A stretch of DNA of 32,000 nt from contig NC_014537.1 in NCBI RefSeq assembly GCF_000148385.1, positions 750,001-782,000 of the forward strand, read 5' to 3'. The translations under genes were made by a program, and so were the position numbers. The notes beneath the pieces were generated by a model. That model made no database searches, was not told the origin of the DNA, and saw nothing but the letters and a program-made list of their open reading frames with translations. This document shows positions 4,854-15,074 of the stretch, piece by piece. Source of the DNA: Vulcanisaeta distributa DSM 14429. Its GTDB lineage: Archaea; Thermoproteota; Thermoprotei; Thermoproteales; Thermocladiaceae. How positions within the stretch are numbered: the stretch's first letter is position 1; the number at the start of each line of letters is the position of its first letter.

Positions 4854-6350
4854 CTAAGTATCGCTTAATTTATCTAACCATCTCCTTGCTAATGACCTTA
4901 TTCTCTCACTTTTTTCGGGATTATTCATAGTCTGTTTCAGCCATTCAACTATCTTACTAAGTATATAATTGTGCTTTTTAATTGTGCTCCAGGGTATGTA
5001 TATTTCCGGAACATTGTTATTGTTTCGTCGCTTAAACTCTATACCGTGCTTATTCAATGTACTTATTAACTCATCTATGTTGCAGCCCTTTCCGCACCAT
5101 GTCCTTAGTTGTATTGTCTTGTCTGTTAATAATACGTTGAATTTAATTCCGTAAATTTCTATTTGAGATGAACCGTGCCTATGTCCAATGCTTATATTAG
5201 CCAATGCCCTCAGCCTACCCCATTTATCAAGGCCTAGTTGCTCCTCAAGCAGATTAAGTATGCGCCTTAATTTATCTGGTAAATTATTAATTATGTATCT
5301 GGTTAGAGTCACGGCATTACTGTTCCAGAGCATTAGTTCAGCCCCATTATCTTTTATGGATATTCTACGATTAATCCCTAACTGTGTCATTAATCCTATT
5401 AAGGCTTTATCTAATTTTTCGTAATTGCTCAATCCCGCACTTATTTTAATATTCTTTTTCCTTAAGTCTACGCTACCATCACTAAGTATTAGCGTAAGTA
5501 AGCTTAATGGTGTGGGATTCTTTTTCAATTCCTTAAATGCCTCATACTTACTTCTAATAGTTTCCCTGTGAGAGTCAGAGTATATGAACCATGTAATGCT
5601 AATGCCCTTTCTCGTAAATCCTAGACTTCTTATCGCCACTTTATCCCTACCAGGGTATAATAATATCCAAAATACTAATTGCCATATCTGTCTCGTTTTC
5701 ATTGCAGGCCTTCCCCTATATATTGTCCCATCACCTGCTCTAAGGCCAAGCTTTAAATTATGTAATTCATACTCACTTAAATTTAGTAAGTCTGGTACTT
5801 CTAACGTTTCTGTGGCCAAATTCCTTAAATATACTTGAGAAGTTATTGACTTTCTATTCTTCTTAATCTCAATTTCTATTGATACTAGTCTTCCATGTAT
5901 TTTAAGAAATAAGCTACCATACTTACCATTAACTACGTAGATCTTTCTCTTACCCATGAACGCGTCTTTAATCGTATTGTTAGCATCATTAATGTAAATA
6001 TTTATCCATTTTTCCTTAACTTCATTTATTAAATGAATTAACTTTTCAATGTTAAATGAAATAATATTTTGTGTATTATCATTAGCAACTATTAAATTAT
6101 TTAAACTTTTAACGAAATTCCTGAGTTTATTTACCGCATTCTCGGCTACCTCATTTATATCATAATCATTGATGCGCCTATGAACCTCAATTAATGCATT
6201 AAATATAGACTGCTTAATATCATTATCAGTTATCTCGTCTATTACTTGACAACCCCGCCTCTTCCTACACCTAGCCCAAACCACGTCAATACTCGTATAC
6301 ATAATTTGCATAGACGGTACAATTGCTTCATTGGAATTCTCGCTGGGCAT
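4854..6350 (-). CDS. AT-rich 498-aa protein with two LAGLIDADG-like motifs (putative homing-endonuclease-related, selfish or foreign gene)
   Basis: Long uninterrupted ORF in very AT-rich DNA; sampled 60-nt lines give about 18-28% G+C. Motif 1 is LKLGLRAGDGTIY (about aa 199-211) and motif 2 is LLTLILSDGSVDL (about aa 284-296), spaced about 85 aa apart. Each is followed by a pattern seen in LAGLIDADG domains (ISAGLSNYEKLDKALIGLMTQLGINRRISI; AELMLWNSNAVTLTRYIINNL, cf. I-DmoI RLRIWNKNKALLEIVSRWLNNLG). The N-terminal about 190 aa and C-terminal about 110 aa are unassigned. Confidence 0.45.
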   Translation of the reverse strand: MPSENSNEAIVPSMQIMYTSIDVVWARCRKRRGCQVIDEITDNDIKQSIFNALIEVHRRINDYDINEVAENAVNKLRNFVKSLNNLIVANDNTQNIISFNIEKLIHLINEVKEKWINIYINDANNTIKDAFMGKRKIYVVNGKYGSLFLKIHGRLVSIEIEIKKNRKSITSQVYLRNLATETLEVPDLLNLSEYELHNLKLGLRAGDGTIYRGRPAMKTRQIWQLVFWILLYPGRDKVAIRSLGFTRKGISITWFIYSDSHRETIRSKYEAFKELKKNPTPLSLLTLILSDGSVDLRKKNIKISAGLSNYEKLDKALIGLMTQLGINRRISIKDNGAELMLWNSNAVTLTRYIINNLPDKLRRILNLLEEQLGLDKWGRLRALANISIGHRHGSSQIEIYGIKFNVLLTDKTIQLRTWCGKGCNIDELISTLNKHGIEFKRRNNNNVPEIYIPWSTIKKHNYILSKIVEWLKQTMNNPEKSERIRSLARRWLDKLSDT

Positions 6351-6490
6351 GGTTTTGTTGTGGTTTTGGGTTTATTATTTTTCGTGGTTATTTTTGTTTA
6401 GTTGGGTTTTGTGAAAGTTTTGTTGTGGGGGTGTAGGGAGAAAGGAAGAGAGAGTGAGTTGTTTTTGAGTTGTTTTGATGGGTTGTTGGT
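6351..6490 (+). repeat. low-complexity G/T-rich, virtually C-free tract (A/C-rich on the minus, sense strand)
   Basis: I count a single C in 6351-6480. On the minus strand, AAAAATAATAAA sits about 26 nt upstream of the ATG at 6350, a TATA-like position. Confidence 0.8.
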
Positions 6491-6682
6491 TTATACGATT
6501 ATGTTTCCTTGTTCGTCTACTTTTGCTATTACTTTTCTTACTGTTTTTCCGTCTGGTGTCTTGAACAGGGCCATTACGAAGCCCTTCCTACCCTTAGGCT
6601 GAACCTTCCAAACCTTCGTAGGCTTAAGCTTCTTGCCCTCTATTTCGTATTCCCTCTTTGCCAGGTCTTCTAGTGTGACCAT
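6491..6682 (-). CDS. cren7: chromatin protein Cren7
   Basis: 63 aa. [34 protein letters not shown] aligns by eye with Sulfolobus Cren7 ([35 protein letters not shown]), including the PKGRKG core. Confidence 0.85.
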
Positions 6683-6834
6683 ATTGGTCGTTGTTTCGTG
6701 GTTGCTTGGTTTAATATTGTAATTGGTTATTTTATGTGCTTGCCTTATTAGGGTCTTCGTTGTTTCAGTTTTGCGTAATGCGTGGTTGTTTGCGATGCGT
6801 AGCGCTTTTAAACTGGTTTCTTCCCATTGTTATT

Positions 6835-6910
6835 AGCCGGGTCGTCTAGCGGCCAAGGATGGCGGGCTCTGGACCCGTTGACCCCGGTTCGAATCCGGGC
6901 CCGGCTACCA
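6835..6910 (+). tRNA. tRNA-Gln (anticodon CTG), CCA encoded
   Basis: Hand-folded. Acceptor AGCCGGG/CCCGGCT (A1:U72), D stem GTCT/GGAT, anticodon stem GCGGG/CCCGT with loop CTCTGGA, T arm CCCGG-TTCGAAT-CCGGG, discriminator A plus CCA. 76 nt, no intron. Confidence 0.9.
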
Positions 6911-7164
6911 CTCTGTTCTTTAATTCTTTTGTGAATGTGATATGGAGGGTTTGCTTTGTCGTGTTACGGCTTATTTGGATTAATGAGTTGGTTTTGGTTA
7001 GGATTTTTGAGATTGGTTTATGTAATGGAATTATTGAGGTCATTGCTGGTATTGATTCTTGATTGTGGCTTGGTTTTAGGATTACGTGGATTCCTCGTCA
7101 TGTAGATGATTAGCTGTGGTGCGTTTTTAATGCCCTGTAGGTAATGCGTTGCTCTGGGTGCTTT

Positions 7165-7185
7165 GGGCATTACTGAATCCCCCGG
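7165..7185 (+). repeat. possible further-decayed att-like copy (gggcatta-c-tgaatcc-cccgg)
   Basis: Shares gggcatta, then tgaatcc, then cccgg, in the same order as 8596-8638 (gggcatta...tgaatccgggcccgg). It lies 20 nt from the stop of the PIN-like gene. The match is short and gapped, so weak. Confidence 0.3.
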
Positions 7186-7205
7186 TGTGGAGGGTTATGT
7201 TTATG

Positions 7206-7871
7206 TTACTTATTGTCTCTAGGGCCTATATTCGTTAGTTGTTCCTTGAATTCCCTGTAATTTAGGGTGATTATTTTATTTGCGCAGGGGCATTTATTGC
7301 ATGCTAGATGCCCTTCAACGAAGTCCCTGAGGTTTTTGTCCTCTGTAATGAAGATCAATTTACCGCTTGTTATACCGGGGCCTTTCCTTCTTGGTACTGT
7401 GGCCAATAAGTCGTAGGCGTAAAGTAATGAGTTTACTATATCTATGTCCTCACTTGGGATTTTACTTAATAATTGGTCCATGATCTCGTTCTTCCAGCAA
7501 ACTCTTCTTTTAGGTCTATACCTTAGGGCCTCCCTCTGTATTTTTAATGATTCGTCGTCCTCGATTATCCTTATGTATCCTTTGCTTACCATATCATTTA
7601 ATTGATTAATACAGTATTGTTCCATTACGTTAACCTCAACATTATGCCATCCATGCTTCGCCCTATCAACGTTACTTAATAGATTGTGCAGGGCCACGTT
7701 TTTGAGCTCACGTATTATGGCACTATCAGTGTAAATAACTAAAGTTCTATTCTCCAGTAAATCCAGGATCTTTATTTTTGGTTTGTTTAACTTACGGTGT
7801 AGGGTCATTGTGTATATTATTTTAACGAGTACATTAGTATCAACAAAAATATGAAATGCCTCAAATACCAT
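7206..7871 (-). CDS. PIN-like domain protein with large insertion and C-terminal Cys cluster (putative toxin/nuclease)
   Basis: N-terminal IFVDTNVLV (D11). Candidate acidic residues are E55 (IRELKN), D142/D144 (EDIDIV) and D178 in LIFITEDKNLRDF, matching the D-E-D-D order of PIN domains. There is an insert of about 85 aa between E and the third D. C-terminal HLACNKCPCANK. Starts 11 nt after the upstream gene. Confidence 0.5.
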   Translation of the reverse strand: MVFEAFHIFVDTNVLVKIIYTMTLHRKLNKPKIKILDLLENRTLVIYTDSAIIRELKNVALHNLLSNVDRAKHGWHNVEVNVMEQYCINQLNDMVSKGYIRIIEDDESLKIQREALRYRPKRRVCWKNEIMDQLLSKIPSEDIDIVNSLLYAYDLLATVPRRKGPGITSGKLIFITEDKNLRDFVEGHLACNKCPCANKIITLNYREFKEQLTNIGPRDNK

Positions 7872-7882
7872 GGATTATCCAC

Positions 7883-8473
7883 CTACTTAAATAGGTCCGG
7901 GTAAAGCTCCTCCTCATTGACTGACTCCCTGCTCTCAAGAATTTCTTTGAGTTTTTTGGCAGCGTCTATGTATGTGTCTAGGCTCATGTTGAACGCCAGC
8001 GCCTTAATGACTTCGCTTTTTATGCCGAGTACCTCAAGTGAATGAGCTACTATATCGCCTTCCCTTAACCTGCCATAGATGTCGATGATCCTCATTGCGT
8101 AATCCGCTAGGTCTTTCAGTCCCCTTTTCTCAAGGGCCCTGTAGGAATCTTCGAAATCCTTATTTATGTCTTTAACGTAATAACTATCGCCAGTCTTCAC
8201 TATGTCATACTTGCTCATTTCAGACTCACCACCGAGTAACCTATCAATTGGTATGAATGGTCCCTTTAGGTATATCCTGAATTCCTCAGGCAACCTAGCC
8301 CTTGGTGAATCAAGGAGTTTTGTACCATCGGCATCCGTGTACAGGATAAGGAATAGTAGTTTAACAAGCACCTCTGTGCTGATACCTCTACCGTACTTCC
8401 TGATGTAGTATGCAATAACAAGCCTAACCAGGTCAATGGCTGGTTCCCGCAATAATTCCTTAACAAGACTCAT
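7883..8473 (-). CDS. Panacea / DUF4065 (SocA/GepA-like) domain protein (putative antitoxin)
   Basis: IDLVRLVIAYYIRKYGRGISTEVLVKLLFLILYTD ... FRIYLKGPFIP resembles the DUF4065 pattern (a..yil...g.it..kLqKLlY.a ... f.aw.yGPv). Lies immediately upstream of, and is probably co-transcribed with, the PIN-like gene. Confidence 0.5.
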   Translation of the reverse strand: MSLVKELLREPAIDLVRLVIAYYIRKYGRGISTEVLVKLLFLILYTDADGTKLLDSPRARLPEEFRIYLKGPFIPIDRLLGGESEMSKYDIVKTGDSYYVKDINKDFEDSYRALEKRGLKDLADYAMRIIDIYGRLREGDIVAHSLEVLGIKSEVIKALAFNMSLDTYIDAAKKLKEILESRESVNEEELYPDLFK

Positions 8474-8610
8474 AACTAATAGTTATTTCTAAGGTAAGTT
8501 TTTTAACCCTGACCCCGTGACTGCCATCATTAATAAATGAAGAAGCAGGTACATTATTTTAATTGATTATGCGGCATGGGCCCTGATTAGTTAATGGGCA
8601 TTAAGAACTT

Positions 8611-8644
8611 CGTTGGTTCAATTTGAATCCGGGCCCGGTTACTA
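8611..8644 (+). repeat. degenerate direct copy of the 3' half of tRNA-Gln (att-like remnant)
   Basis: cgttggttcaatttgaatccgggcccggttacta. The last 21 nt match the tRNA 3' end cgaatccgggcccggctacca at 18/21, including the exact 14-mer gaatccgggcccgg. All 3 mismatches are C to T in this copy. The leading cgttg matches tRNA 6876-6880. Confidence 0.75.
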
Positions 8645-8941
8645 ATGTCGAGTAATTCTCGATTATCACGTTGTTGGTTTGTGTAGGGTTTTGGTTATCT
8701 CTTGGTTTATGTTCATGGAAAATAAATGTTGAGAAGTGAATAGCAGGTTTGATGAAGGATTGCGTTGTTTAGCGTAGGGTTGGATGTTAGTGTGGGTATT
8801 GGATAAGTATGAATTGTTGTTAAACATTATTTAAATGTAAAATCTAAAATATTCTAATTAATGCATGAAATAGTTAGGTATGTATTCTTATAAGAGTCAT
8901 ATAGGAAAATCTTTTAAATACATATATAATAGGTTAGTAGT

Positions 8942-10291
8942 ATGGTTAGGGTTCAGTGGTCCCCTGAACACTATAAATGGCCGCCTAGGTCAGGGAGTGC
9001 CATTGCATCTCAGTTCGTTGGCTTCTTCCTGGATGCGTATGACTTGACCTTTGTTACGGCAATGACCACAATACTGGCAGCCGTGCTAATGCCCCCAACC
9101 CTGTCTAAGTCCGTCGTTGGTTACTTCCTGACATTGCTTGGTTACGCATTTACAATGATTGCAAGGCCGGTGGGTAGTGCATTATTTGGTAATTTTGCCG
9201 ATAGGATTGGTAGGAGGGATACTTTAATGATTACAATACTTGGCTATGGGATAATGAGTGCCGTTACCGCGGCGATACCGACCTACGCCCAGGTTGGTTG
9301 GGCAGCCTTTTGGATATATGCCGTGATTAGGTTCATACTTGGTATATTCGTTGGTGGTGAGTACGCGGCTGGCCACCCATTTGCCATGGAGTACTCGGCG
9401 CCTAGGTGGAGGGGTCTAGTCAGCGGTATTGTTCAGGGAGGCTTCTCCTGGGGGGTTGCCTTGGGTGGTTTCGTGGTCTCAGCGTTTACGGCGATGTTTG
9501 GTGTTAAGGCCATGTATGCCTACGCGTGGCGTTACGTATTCTTAACCGGCCTCATACCTGCCGTGGTGGCTTTCATAATAAGGTTTACAATGCCTGACAC
9601 GCCCATATTCCAGGAGGTTAAGGAGAAGGGTCAGCTCGAGAGGATACCGTTCTTCAGTATCTTTAAGCCTCCGGCCCTATGGACTTTCCTACAGGTCTTG
9701 GTGTTTATGACGGGTCTCTTCTTTAGTTCATACTCAATGTTTGACTTCGCGGTTGGTATTTACACAAGGGCTGGCTTGCCTGAGGGGTTAGCTAGCTTCT
9801 ACTATGGCATCATGGGTGTCTTTGCTGCCATAGCAGCGACGTTGTGGGGACTCGCCAGTGATTTCATCGGTAGGAAGCGTGCATTAATCATATCGGCGGT
9901 GGTCTCGGCAGTGTTGGCGGTACCTGCCTATTACGTGGTTTATTACAGCGCCGTTGTTAGGAGTGTGCCATTACTTGTCCTTGGCGCCCTCCTAATGGGT
10001 TGGCTGTCGCAGTGGCCCTGGGGCCTGGTCCCTGTTTACTTATCAGAGCGCTTCGCAACGCAGAGGAGGGGTTCCGGTGTCGGTTTTGGTTATAGCTCGG
10101 GAATATTCATTAGCGCCTGGATGCCTCTATATTCAATACCGCTTTATGGCGTCTTCGCGGCTATTGAGGGTACTAACATATGGTTCACGGCAGCCTTCTG
10201 GCTCATTCTCGCCGGTGTTGTTTATGGTATTGCAGCTGCGATAGGGCCTGAGACAATAGGCATCGATCTAAGGATTGTTAGGGAGAGGTAA
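8942..10291 (+). CDS. MFS transporter (metabolite:H+ symporter-like)
   Basis: 449 aa with about 12 hydrophobic helices. MFS loop signature GNFADRIGRRDTLMITI and a second DFIGRKRALIIS. Confidence 0.8.
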   Translation: MVRVQWSPEHYKWPPRSGSAIASQFVGFFLDAYDLTFVTAMTTILAAVLMPPTLSKSVVGYFLTLLGYAFTMIARPVGSALFGNFADRIGRRDTLMITILGYGIMSAVTAAIPTYAQVGWAAFWIYAVIRFILGIFVGGEYAAGHPFAMEYSAPRWRGLVSGIVQGGFSWGVALGGFVVSAFTAMFGVKAMYAYAWRYVFLTGLIPAVVAFIIRFTMPDTPIFQEVKEKGQLERIPFFSIFKPPALWTFLQVLVFMTGLFFSSYSMFDFAVGIYTRAGLPEGLASFYYGIMGVFAAIAATLWGLASDFIGRKRALIISAVVSAVLAVPAYYVVYYSAVVRSVPLLVLGALLMGWLSQWPWGLVPVYLSERFATQRRGSGVGFGYSSGIFISAWMPLYSIPLYGVFAAIEGTNIWFTAAFWLILAGVVYGIAAAIGPETIGIDLRIVRER

Positions 10292-10336
10292 TGGCCCCTT
10301 AACCTAATGCTTATACTTAAATCCTCAGTTTCTCTT

Positions 10337-10936
10337 TTACTTATCCCTTAGGTTGCCGTACCTTAAACCCATCGTGAATGCCTTTATGTTTCTATCCACA
10401 TCCCTCCTAATATTAGCCTTTATTGACTCTTCAACTATATTTTGCGGTATGTACTGGTTTAACCCCATTATTGAGTAAAGCGCACCGAGTATCACCATGT
10501 TTTCATAAATCACGTTACCTAATTTAATGGCATCATCGTAGGCATTCACTATGTAAATCCTCCTAATGCTACTCCTCAAGGCATTCTCCAATTCATTAAT
10601 ACTTGGTATCCTCTGTTTTGTGGCTGGTGGCCTTATTAACCTCCTATTAACTATGAATACCGTGCCCTCATTGGCGTAGCCAATGGCCCTAAATGCCTCA
10701 AGTATTTCGAAGGCTACGACAACATCAGCGCCACCCCTGGGTATTAATGGCGCATCGACGTCTCCAATCCTGACATGAACATCGATAGAGCCACCCCTCT
10801 GGCTTAATCCATGGGTCTCTGCAACCAAGGCCTTATAGCCAGCCCTTATGGCTGCATCGCCGAGTACTGTGGCGAATGTGACAAGTCCCTGACCACCGAC
10901 ACCGGCTAAGTATATATTGAGTCTCATGATCGTCAC
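10337..10936 (-). CDS. iorB: indolepyruvate:ferredoxin oxidoreductase subunit beta (IorB; 2-oxoacid oxidoreductase gamma-type domain)
   Basis: LNIYLAGVGGQGLVTFATVLG motif of the gamma/IorB family. 199 aa, starting 3 nt downstream of the iorA stop. Confidence 0.8.
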   Translation of the reverse strand: MTIMRLNIYLAGVGGQGLVTFATVLGDAAIRAGYKALVAETHGLSQRGGSIDVHVRIGDVDAPLIPRGGADVVVAFEILEAFRAIGYANEGTVFIVNRRLIRPPATKQRIPSINELENALRSSIRRIYIVNAYDDAIKLGNVIYENMVILGALYSIMGLNQYIPQNIVEESIKANIRRDVDRNIKAFTMGLRYGNLRDK

Positions 10937-12796: not shown

Positions 12797-12946
12797 TACC
12801 TAGGCATATGTAATTTAAAGCCTTTCTCCTAGAACTTGATAAATTAATTAGTGATATATTTAATTTAGTATGAATATATAGTTTATATTCAGGCTAGAAT
12901 GGTTTCGTCACACATCGGTATGTCTAGGGTTCATCACGGGTGTTTT

Positions 12947-12961
12947 ACTAGTAATACTAGT
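12947..12961. promoter_or_regulatory. 15-bp palindrome ACTAGTA-a-TACTAGT in the ior / surface-protein divergent intergenic region
   Basis: Perfect 7-nt arms with a 1-nt spacer, read directly from the sequence. Candidate transcription-factor operator. Confidence 0.35.
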
Positions 12962-13070
12962 TTATATATTTAATGCATTCAAGCATGAATCGCGCGTTTC
13001 TAGGTATTACTTTAGTTATTTTAATTGCTTATTTAATATTACCTGGTTCATAGTCGATTTCGTGAACAAT

Positions 13071-15074
13071 ATGAGGAGGAACTTGGCAATACTCCTGGCT
13101 GTACTGGCAATAACAATCTCAGTGGTGGCGCTGGCAGCCCAGTATCAGGTATCGCCAAATGTGAATTCACCATCAACGATAAATCAACCGTACTATGCGG
13201 TGCTTGAGTATATTGATTATATAAATACTACAAGGGCTGTGACCATCGCGCCTGGTCAGTCAATTACGATACAGGCACCATTACCTCCTGGGCCTGGTTA
13301 TGTACTTGATTACATAGAGGTGAGTGTTAATCCACCATCGCCAGCCATATTAATTAGTGGCAATAATGTGATGTATAGTAAGAATGAGGTTGGTGCAGTA
13401 GTCCATGCATACACAACAAGCAATAGCCTATCCATAGCCAACTCAGGTAATCAGCCCCTGAATGAGACTATATCTGTGACTTACGTATTTGTTAATGAGG
13501 AGTATGTTCCGCTCAATACCTCGGCATCATCATTCACATTAAGCATATCCATACCAGATAGCACAATTCAGTATGTGACGCAGCAAGTGGTCGAGCTATC
13601 AATACCGAACTATATGCCCTTCGAAATAGCTGGTGTGGCATTACCCAATGGAACAACGCTATCACAGTTAGTCTCTGCCTGGAGTCCACTGGCTAATTAC
13701 ATAAAGGTTGAGCCGAAATACGTGGAGTTAATGGCTAATGAATTACCACCTGGTCAGTACCAGGTAACGATTAATTACGGTAGTGAGTACGTAATGCCGA
13801 GCGCAATGTTGATTAAGGGTACGGAGTTCCTAAACTACACCGTTAACCCAGGCCAGACCCTGGAGATAACTGGTTCGGAGTTCGGAGTTCCACCTGGCTG
13901 GAACCTACTGGGCTACATAGTCGCTGTTTACACGGTGCAGCCACTCGTTGTTGGTGAGAAGCCAGGTCACTTTGAGGTAATTGCTAACATGGTGTCTCCA
14001 GCTTACCTATACAGTGATTTAATACAGGTCAGTGGTATCAGCTACTTACTGCCGCCGTTCATAAGGTTTGCACCAATGATAGGGATTTACATAGTGTATG
14101 ATAGGTACTTCGAGATTGTCGATAACCTAAATGTGCCGCTTGTTGTGACCTTCATGCCGATAATATATAAGCCAATTGGGCAGTGGGTTAATGGTAACCT
14201 GGAGGCCACCGTGAGCGATGCCGACGTCTCTGGCGGCCTATGGACCGCGTTGGTTGTTCAGCTCCCCGAGATAGCCCACATATACAAGATAGTCACGCCA
14301 AGCGGTACCGTGTACACGGGCCTTGTGAACTCGGAAATACCGTGGGGCTCAGCCGAGAGATTGGTCTCAATAAGTCCTGATGGTTCTCAGGCATACATAG
14401 CAGTTTCAACACTAGGTGTTAGTGAGACCGGCATATACACAGTTTACGTCAATTGGACGCCAATAACAATGCACTTCACAAATACACTGAATGCACCAAT
14501 AAGTGGCGTTAGGGTCGAGGCCTATATAAATGGATCGCTCATCGCAAGTAGTGTTAGTGATGCGAACGGCAATGCCTACATAAGCATTAAGGAACCTGCC
14601 CCATTCACGGCAATCGTGTATTATGATAACGTACCCATCTATTACGTTAATGTGAACTCACTAATTAATCAACCAATAGGCGTGACAATAGGCCTGTACA
14701 ACGTGACAGTGCTGTTTGTTGGTGCGAGAAACCAGGCAATATCCAATGCCAAGATAACGCTGTATAGGATTGGCACTGGTCCAATATATAATGGAACAAC
14801 CGGCAGCACGGGCACAACGGGTTTCGTTAACGTCCTTGGTGGGACATACCTAGTCACTGCCCAGTATGGTAATTTAAAGTACAGTGAGTTGGTGACGATA
14901 AATGGCAATGACGTAATAACTATTAAGTCGGACATACTGGCCATAATTGATGGATTCCCAATAACCACGATAGAGGCCTTAATAGGTACGCTAGGGCTTG
15001 GTGGTGCTGCTGCCATAGCCTTCGCCTTCGCTGGTAGGAAGGGTAGTAAAGATTACGAGGTTGTAGCAATGTAA
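13071..15074 (+). CDS. large secreted/cell-surface protein (S-layer-associated or glycoprotein-like) with C-terminal membrane anchor
   Basis: N-terminal signal/TM (MRRNLAILLAVLAITISVVALAAQ; track start GTG 13062). Many N-x-S/T sequons. Two carboxypeptidase-regulatory-like beta-sandwich repeats (VRVEAYINGSLIASSVSDANGNAYISI; AKITLYRIGTG...GFVNVLGGTYLVTAQYG). C-terminal hydrophobic helix plus a basic tail (LGLGGAAAIAFAFAGRKGSK). Confidence 0.6.
   Translation: MRRNLAILLAVLAITISVVALAAQYQVSPNVNSPSTINQPYYAVLEYIDYINTTRAVTIAPGQSITIQAPLPPGPGYVLDYIEVSVNPPSPAILISGNNVMYSKNEVGAVVHAYTTSNSLSIANSGNQPLNETISVTYVFVNEEYVPLNTSASSFTLSISIPDSTIQYVTQQVVELSIPNYMPFEIAGVALPNGTTLSQLVSAWSPLANYIKVEPKYVELMANELPPGQYQVTINYGSEYVMPSAMLIKGTEFLNYTVNPGQTLEITGSEFGVPPGWNLLGYIVAVYTVQPLVVGEKPGHFEVIANMVSPAYLYSDLIQVSGISYLLPPFIRFAPMIGIYIVYDRYFEIVDNLNVPLVVTFMPIIYKPIGQWVNGNLEATVSDADVSGGLWTALVVQLPEIAHIYKIVTPSGTVYTGLVNSEIPWGSAERLVSISPDGSQAYIAVSTLGVSETGIYTVYVNWTPITMHFTNTLNAPISGVRVEAYINGSLIASSVSDANGNAYISIKEPAPFTAIVYYDNVPIYYVNVNSLINQPIGVTIGLYNVTVLFVGARNQAISNAKITLYRIGTGPIYNGTTGSTGTTGFVNVLGGTYLVTAQYGNLKYSELVTINGNDVITIKSDILAIIDGFPITTIEALIGTLGLGGAAAIAFAFAGRKGSKDYEVVAM

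Follow-up and report, generated by a model that had tools for sequence, protein, structure and literature searches.

Archaeal integrases usually target tRNA genes, and elements captured there leave their traces (PMC3119797; PMC4158269). Gene capture of the SSV (Sulfolobus spindle-shaped virus) and pNOB8 types (She et al., summarised in PMC3119797 and PMC4158269) is directed at the 3' part of a tRNA gene, leaves an intact tRNA together with a displaced direct copy of some tens of nucleotides, is recognisable by empty sites in relatives, and yields a free repeat that decays over time. We describe a locus with all of these features in Vulcanisaeta distributa DSM 14429, at positions 6911-8644 of a stretch of 32,000 nt from its chromosome (contig NC_014537.1; the window), where a cassette of two genes lies between a tRNA-Gln gene and a degenerate partial copy of that gene. 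The original prediction, made from the sequence of the window by itself, took this block for an immobilised remnant of gene capture. Unlike SSV- and pNOB8-type captures, the cassette has no integrase, no intN or intC fragments and no other genes, even in a young copy whose repeats are perfect; the insert measures only about 1.5 kb, and the same two genes recur at three tRNA species. The cassette is a variant of the tRNA-integrating elements that is minimal, integrase-less and recurrent at several tRNAs. For the block in V. distributa we put forward, with confidence and doubt in about equal measure, the reading that it is an old, fixed copy of a very small mobile unit that would insert into the 3' parts of tRNA genes and be mobilised in trans.

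The window serves as reference throughout, and the loci compared with it, from relatives and metagenomes, are labelled L001-L058. Both ARAGORN and Rfam place the tRNA-Gln(CTG) gene so that it ends, as predicted, at 6910 (Table 1); the gene is 100% identical in V. souniana and in strain JCM 14467 (L023). The partial copy on the same strand at 8611-8644 reads as first reported. An exact 14-mer, GAATCCGGGCCCGG, occurs at 6891-6904 and 8625-8638 and at no other site in the 32 kb, and the last 21 nt of the copy match the 3' end of the tRNA at 18 positions, the three mismatches all being C to T. Matches to the 14-mer with at most two mismatches, expected 0.20 times in the window, were observed four times, a number reached by none of 100 shuffles. 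Ungapped extension aligns 8617-8644 with tRNA positions 49-76 (21/28 matches), and all seven mismatches are C:G to T:A. This segment, the top non-self match to tRNA-Gln on either strand of the whole window, scores 45.5 under a scheme tolerant of deamination, where the maxima from shuffles of the intergenic region around the copy have a mean of 19.7 (sd 2.5) and reach 32.5 at most. The preceding cgttg, counted in the prediction as part of the copy, does align with tRNA positions 6876-6880 of the window, but only if a 1-nt deletion is allowed; with that deletion the copy spans at least 34 nt. The 3' part of tRNA-Gln, at least 6876-6910, is the duplicated core on the attL side. An extension of the repeat downstream, comparing 6911-7205 with 8645-8941, gave only a marginal score of 31 (shuffles: mean 22.5, sd 3.3, maximum 34) and was not used.

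The copy has no role as a functional tRNA or as half of a split tRNA. The 5' strand of the T-stem, CCCGG in tRNA-Gln, reads TTCAA in the copy, and at 8611-8644 ARAGORN makes no tRNA call and Rfam gives no match at E<=1, in agreement with the prediction that the copy is non-functional. The same prediction attributed the decay to deamination in a thermophile. The C:G to T:A spectrum is there, but it is indistinguishable from that of ordinary AT-biased decay, and since the partial copy is identical in V. souniana, the mismatch spectrum is a single evolutionary sample.

The cassette also occurs in a Thermocladium metagenome-assembled genome (L010; GCA_049965935.1), between direct repeats that are perfect over 53 nt (53/53) and spaced 1,592 nt. 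The repeat comprises positions 32-77 of tRNA-Trp, beginning in the anticodon loop, plus 7 nt of trailer; this trailer is lineage-specific, TATCTAT in L010 and TAGTTCT in the lineage with the empty site. In L035, a metagenome contig (ERZ1669250) with the same arrangement, the repeats match at 52 of 53 positions. The L010 insert (5285-6828 of that locus, 1,544 bp) has two genes only and no integrase fragment; about 100 bp separate its promoter from the repeat, and host DNA resumes after the partial copy. Eight Thermocladium contigs (L051-L058), retrieved via the fructose-1,6-bisphosphatase (FBPase) that adjoins the tRNA-Trp copy, supply the empty site: in all eight, the genes for a glycosyltransferase, tRNA-Trp and FBPase are adjacent and no cassette is present. 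Aligned with this empty site, L010 falls into two blocks, both of which overlap the same 48 bp of the tRNA-Trp 3' part. To judge by its perfect repeats, the L010 copy appears to be a young insertion that is already integrase-less.

At tRNA-Gln, too, a relative lacks the cassette. The exact Cren7 protein of the window retrieved four Vulcanisaeta loci around this tRNA (L001-L004). The three V. souniana assemblies among them (L001-L003, 79-85% identical to the window) carry the cassette and the partial tRNA copy. L004 (GCA_001316125.1; 93% genome identity, flanks 93-97%) has Cren7, tRNA-Gln and the gene for a major facilitator superfamily (MFS) protein in the same order without the cassette, and 78 bp stand in place of window 6913-8806. 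The left break falls exactly at the 3' end of the tRNA (blastn 6912/6913). This empty site, the repeat statistics and the perfect repeats of the Thermocladium copy bear out the prediction that tRNA-Gln and its displaced copy, an intact tRNA and a same-strand partial 3' copy with foreign DNA between them, are the footprint of an insertion. The right end of the block, predicted at 8644, did not hold up: homology with L004 resumes only at 8807, so that the break is off the repeat by 162 bp, whereas the breaks against L051-L058 are clean. The 162 bp in question (8645-8806) align with nothing in L004, and the 78-bp spacer of L004 aligns with neither arm of the block.

The displacement of the right break is probably due to a mosaic tract. 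From 8090 to about 9300 the window is 94-100% identical to V. souniana and only 65-87% identical to its closer relative L004. Within this tract, V. souniana JCM 11219 shares all but one base of 8101-9100 and 94-98% of 9101-9300. Beyond 9300 the relationship flips, to 90-96% identity with L004 and 78-88% with V. souniana; the tract ends inside the MFS gene. Judged by these identities, window 8090-9300 was probably imported from a V. souniana-like genome, so beyond the partial copy, on its right, the DNA belongs to the V. souniana type and is not comparable with the native spacer of L004. The left crossover lies inside the cassette, which implies that the V. distributa lineage already had the cassette, and the part of the cassette outside the imported tract differs from V. 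souniana by a synonymous divergence (dS) of 0.37-0.74, compared with about 1.0 for the neighbouring MFS gene. The simplest history would be an insertion before V. distributa and V. souniana split and a later loss, possibly by excision, in the lineage of L004.

Purifying selection acts on both genes of the cassette. In the comparison of V. distributa with V. souniana the ratio of nonsynonymous to synonymous divergence (dN/dS) is 0.17 for the PIN-like gene and 0.12 for the gene of the 196-aa partner, which indicates that the two genes are maintained, not decaying, and functional. The composition of the block says less. Its lower G+C content, cited in the prediction, is real in that 0.401 falls at the 10th percentile of the window (mean 0.440, sd 0.030), but the effect is weak and comes from the PIN-like gene (0.371), the 196-aa gene being average (0.438); composition was set aside as a sign of foreignness.

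In all copies adjacent to a tRNA gene the 3' end of the PIN gene faces the 3' end of the tRNA, whichever tRNA it is (Table 1). At an estimated density of about one tRNA gene per 50 kb, the association of the cassette with tRNA genes is far beyond chance. Among the non-coding DNA of the tRNA-Gln, tRNA-Trp and tRNA-His copies, only some 50 nt of promoter are conserved; what aligns locally between the upstream regions (z=3.1-5.3) lies within about -60 to -8, and an A/T-rich box, TTTTTAAC/TTTAAAAC, is common to the promoter regions. The left arm is not homologous to the arms found at tRNA-Trp and tRNA-His, and beyond the promoter no conserved or inverted element termini were found across copies. 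A proposal that the left arm is native host DNA, from a CGTGTTACGG motif shared with the DNA downstream of the tRNA in L018 and L022, was dropped, the score of 28 being non-significant (shuffles: mean 22, maximum 32).

Some of these copies have peculiarities of their own. In L005 (10606-13176), and likewise in L006 and L007, a later insertion that carries TnpB (Cas12f1-like_TNB) and an STIV_B116-like gene separates the N-terminal part of the PIN gene (10606-10911) from its C-terminal part (12922-13176). The tRNA 1.1 kb downstream of the cassette in L036 (4938-5063, minus strand) has a long intron, was missed by ARAGORN and barely reaches the Rfam gathering score (29.3 bits). In L009 (1-8246) a type III-B (Cmr) CRISPR module that includes Csx1 is followed immediately downstream by the cassette; vapBC-like pairs are known to border CRISPR-Cas cassettes in crenarchaea.

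Table 1. Features of the tRNA-Gln locus in the window, followed by the copies of the cassette that adjoin tRNA genes
Feature	Position in the window, or distance from the tRNA	Strand	Evidence or occurrence
tRNA-Gln(CTG), intact, CCA encoded	6835-6910	+	ARAGORN; Rfam tRNA, 56.2 bits
Left arm, G/T-rich, non-coding, from tRNA 3' end to stop of PIN-like gene	6911-7205		Absent from L004
PIN-like protein, 221 aa, putative toxin/nuclease	7206-7871	-	Pfam PIN_3, sub-threshold
Partner protein, 196 aa, upstream gene of the pair, putative antitoxin/regulator	7883-8473	-	No known domain
Promoter/operator region of the cassette, -8 to -60 from the start codon	8481-8533	-	Upstream-region local alignments
Decayed direct copy of tRNA-Gln 3' part (attR-side remnant)	8611-8644	+	Well-supported segment 8617-8644
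Non-coding stretch from partial copy to resumption of L004 homology	8645-8806		blastn; inside V. souniana-like tract
Cassette at tRNA-Gln	295 nt		V. distributa, V. souniana
Cassette at tRNA-Trp	190 nt		L010, L035
Cassette at tRNA-His	192 nt		L011; also L005-L007, with PIN gene split
Truncated cassette at a second tRNA-Gln, different neighbours	490 nt		L045
Cassette at an intron-bearing tRNA	1.1 kb		L036, L037

The absence of an integrase from the block, already part of the prediction, was confirmed for both open reading frames (ORFs) and for every frame of the arms. The two ORFs have no recombinase domain (Pfam) and no fold match to recombinases (PDB), and a search for fragments, with six-frame pieces of both arms, returned no Pfam integrase match at E<=1. 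A 65-aa ORF antisense to tRNA-Gln (6846-7043) was considered as an intN and rejected: V. souniana does not conserve it, and nothing corresponds to it in L010 or L035, where the frames antisense to the tRNA close within 22-25 codons, so no SSV-type intN exists there. The locus departs in this way from the partitioned-integrase elements of SSV-type gene capture, with no intN-like frame across the tRNA, and from the pNOB8-type and classical tyrosine-integrase elements, with no integrase gene inside. Transposons and casposons at tRNA 3' ends resemble the cassette in inserting beside the tRNA 3' end and in making a direct target duplication, but the cassette has no transposase, Cas1 or terminal inverted repeats. 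The usual target-site duplication is, moreover, much shorter than the 46-53 nt seen here. In the left arm, a 58-aa stop-to-stop frame (7018-7190, minus strand) has a sub-threshold Pfam match to the capsid protein VP4 of Sulfolobus polyhedral virus 1 (SPV1_VP4; E=0.0019, 18.3 bits, cut-off 27). Given the low complexity of the frame, the resemblance probably reflects composition; a genuine match would be a hint that the left arm came from a virus.

Between tRNA-Gln and its copy lie only two ORFs, on the same strand and 11 nt apart, as expected from the prediction that the block holds nothing but a two-gene cassette resembling a toxin-antitoxin pair. The VapBC (PIN) pairs of thermophilic archaea (PMC3119797) are a close counterpart: they share the two-gene operon with a small gap typical of toxin-antitoxin pairs (11 nt here), a downstream protein with a PIN-like N-terminal domain, putative in the cassette, and conserved acidic residues, a location in variable regions and next to CRISPR-Cmr genes (L009), and a patchy, mobile distribution. 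The linkage is stable: in every locus with a homologue of the 196-aa protein at about 50% identity or more, and a contig extending far enough, tblastn places the PIN-like gene immediately behind the 196-aa gene (L001-L013, L035-L037). In other respects the pair departs from VapBC. The PIN-like protein is 215-221 aa long, with an insertion of about 60 residues and a Cys-rich tail, and stays under the Pfam cut-off; the fold of the upstream 196-aa protein, predicted with confidence, matches that of no known antitoxin (AbrB, CopG, DUF217 etc.); and flanking tRNA repeats are not among the vapBC features described in the literature cited here.

The match of the 221-aa protein to PIN_3 has E=0.0036 and 18.5 bits (cut-off 27). 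In the family alignment D11, E55, E104/D106 and D177 are conserved, together with C125 and a C-terminal motif CxxCxC (a CxxCPC tail). Its AlphaFold2 model has a mean predicted local distance difference test (pLDDT) of 66, and the best Foldseek neighbours in the PDB are PIN-like nucleases (HARP/PRORP, Exo1, Utp24), at a non-significant E>=0.09. The family is tiny: 5.8 billion proteins yield seven clusters, and HMMER, run exhaustively over 1.84 billion, finds 12 representatives; a first metagenome scan with the PIN profile gave no matches. The 196-aa protein has no match in Pfam, NCBIfam, PADLOC or PHROGs. Its AlphaFold2 model is good (pLDDT 89.6), and no fold in the PDB matches at E<=0.001. The best match in BFVD is an unnamed viral protein of 145 aa (E=2.5e-3), and such unnamed viral proteins of about 150 aa are its only weak fold neighbours. 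The homologues (n=20) all come from Vulcanisaeta, Pyrobaculum (Thermoproteales) or hot-spring metagenomes. The idea that it is a Panacea/SocA-like antitoxin is not claimed, since none of 18 family members matched DUF4065 or any other Pfam model. The pair is probably a VapBC-like toxin-antitoxin module, a putative addiction module that would keep the unit in place.

How such a unit could move is suggested by the bacterial cis-mobilizable elements (CIMEs), a concept defined in PMC5704250. CIMEs and other integrase-less satellites of integrative and conjugative or integrative and mobilizable elements (ICEs and IMEs; PMC5704250) have attL- and attR-like repeats at a tRNA 3' end, lack integration and transfer genes of their own, and are presumably moved by a helper integrase. 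L010 and L035 likewise keep both repeats and no integration or transfer genes, and in the window the attR side has decayed. The cassette differs in being archaeal and far smaller, with no helper or tandem accretion seen, and CIMEs are defined as decay products of ICEs or IMEs (PMC5704250), whereas the minimal form of the cassette appears to be a recurrent unit. On the reading that we favour, a unit of about 1.5-1.7 kb, consisting of the promoter, the 196-aa gene and the PIN-like gene without an integrase, would behave as a satellite resembling a CIME. Site-specific recombination between a tRNA 3'-part copy borne by the element and the chromosomal tRNA gene would be carried out in trans by an integrase that a virus or plasmid in the same cell supplies, and insertion would rebuild an intact tRNA-Gln on one side and leave a displaced copy of its 3' part on the other, originally perhaps about 45-50 nt long. 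In the lineage of V. distributa and V. souniana the insertion would have preceded the species split, after which the free repeat would have decayed by C:G to T:A changes. The decay of the downstream repeat means that the V. distributa copy is old and probably immobile. To this extent the description of the block as an immobilised capture remnant stands. It is less apt for the unit itself, which behaves as an insert: three independent insertions hold the same two genes only and the freshest of them is already integrase-less, so the two-gene unit behaves as a mobile module.

Several observations weigh against mobilisation of the unit in trans. Use of the tRNA-Gln, tRNA-Trp and tRNA-His sites requires at least two switches of att core with the same geometry, for which there is no documented route that we could propose. 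Neither a helper integrase nor a circular form nor a free copy bearing attP was found, no integrase search of whole genomes having been made, and the cassette was not found among the IMG/VR viral contigs. The tRNA-His, L045 and L036 copies have no detectable partial tRNA copy, even under a transition-tolerant score, and two contexts, L008 and L012/L013, are without any tRNA. The arms differ between copies, so that the ends of the unit are defined by the repeats alone, and against L004 the right break, at 8806/8807, lies 162 bp past the partial copy. As for the genes, the PIN assignment is under curated thresholds, and four libraries of hidden Markov models and the PDB reveal in the 196-aa protein neither an antitoxin domain nor a known DNA-binding fold (AbrB, CopG/RHH).

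A possible, though doubtful, alternative is that the block is the residue of a larger virus or plasmid that carried an integrase and integrated into tRNA-Gln, of which only an addictive toxin-antitoxin pair survived. Archaeal elements at tRNA genes classically end in this way (PMC3119797; She et al., cited in PMC4158269). The copy in V. distributa is old, with a decayed repeat; the tRNA-His copies of L005-L007 lie among mobile and viral genes (TnpB, STIV_B116-like); the left arm has the sub-threshold, capsid-like SPV1_VP4 match; and addiction modules are expected to outlive their elements. Nevertheless, the insertions at tRNA-Gln, tRNA-Trp and tRNA-His contain the same two genes with short arms, and the young L010 copy, with its 53/53 repeats, is already just 1,544 bp long and free of integrase fragments; on these grounds the block is not visibly the rump of a larger element that the prediction supposed. 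No larger element related to the cassette was found, scans of viral contigs being negative (the IMG/VR result counts here too), and no intN frame runs over the tRNA, a trace that SSV-type captures usually retain (PMC3119797).

It is unlikely that the unit is a self-mobilising element of a new class. In this alternative the PIN-like nuclease and its 196-aa partner would recognise tRNA genes and cut the two strands at staggered positions, in the anticodon loop and a little beyond the 3' end, and gap repair would produce the repeat of 46-53 bp, which would be a target-site duplication and not an att core, with no tyrosine or serine recombinase involved. Such a mechanism would account for three tRNAs in one orientation at similar distances without any switching of att cores, and for an L010 repeat that starts at position 32, in the anticodon loop, and includes the lineage-specific 7-nt trailer. 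No other recombinase is present, and the weak structural neighbours of the PIN-like protein include the tRNA-processing nucleases HARP and PRORP. But those fold matches are non-significant (E>=0.09, from a model of pLDDT 66), no conserved termini or inverted repeats lie beside the duplications, several copies lack the repeat or the tRNA, and in layout and size the operon is as expected of an ordinary VapBC-like pair. We know, besides, of no PIN-domain protein that catalyses DNA integration. The remaining alternative, that nothing was inserted, 8611-8644 being a chance similarity or another functional RNA and the cassette ancestral and deleted in L004, is highly improbable, for it has on its side a plain gapped local alignment of the two intergenic regions that is not exceptional (score 32, shuffle maximum 38) and the right break against L004 off the copy, but has to contend with a G+C-rich exact 14-mer unique in 32 kb, a deamination-tolerant score well over the null maximum, seven of seven mismatches in one mutational class, the silence of Rfam and ARAGORN at 8611-8644, and an independent Thermocladium copy with perfect repeats and empty sites.

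The 3' side of this tRNA-Gln gene is a hot spot of change. L018 (Vulcanisaeta sp. JCM 16159) and L022 (V. distributa JCM 11216) have neither the cassette nor the MFS gene, with about 360 bp in place of window 6914-10342, which suggests that the MFS gene also arrived at this tRNA flank; L023 is rearranged just after tRNA-Gln. In L018 (9756-9847) and L022 (9753-9847) the tRNA-Gln gene has an intron of 16-19 nt inside the duplicated-core region. Introns have been proposed to protect archaeal tRNA genes from integration (PMC3119797), and an intron-bearing tRNA-Gln without a cassette in these two strains fits that idea.

Around the cassette, the stretch comprising Cren7, tRNA-Gln and the first 190 nt after it (6500-7100) is 97-100% identical in three lineages although neighbouring genes have a dS of about 1. 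Paralogues of Cren7 occur at several loci among L014-L034, with three or four per genome in JCM 14467, JCM 16159 and JCM 11217, only one of them beside tRNA-Gln. On the other side of Cren7, a hypervariable slot is occupied in the window by a 498-aa ORF (4854-6350, minus strand) with a G+C content of 0.34 and a faint LAGLIDADG_3 match. In L004, at 93% genome identity, the slot holds an unrelated 469-aa ORF (BLASTP E=0.6), while JCM 14467, at about 82% genome identity, has an 80%-identical allele and V. souniana only fragments at 25%; the distribution of alleles in this slot does not track relatedness.

Toxin-antitoxin pairs are notoriously mobile, and how a bare pair moves from one chromosomal site to another is rarely visible. 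Here a rare pair that has no recombinase of its own has been caught at three tRNA species with the signature of site-specific insertion. If a helper moves it in trans, the cassette would be an archaeal counterpart of the integrase-less satellites of bacteria and, to our knowledge, the smallest such unit; if it were true that it moves by itself, this would be a new integration mechanism. The locus also documents recent exchange of DNA between two species of Vulcanisaeta. More generally, what are taken for short "integration remnants" at archaeal tRNA genes may in some cases be minimal elements that are complete and not debris.

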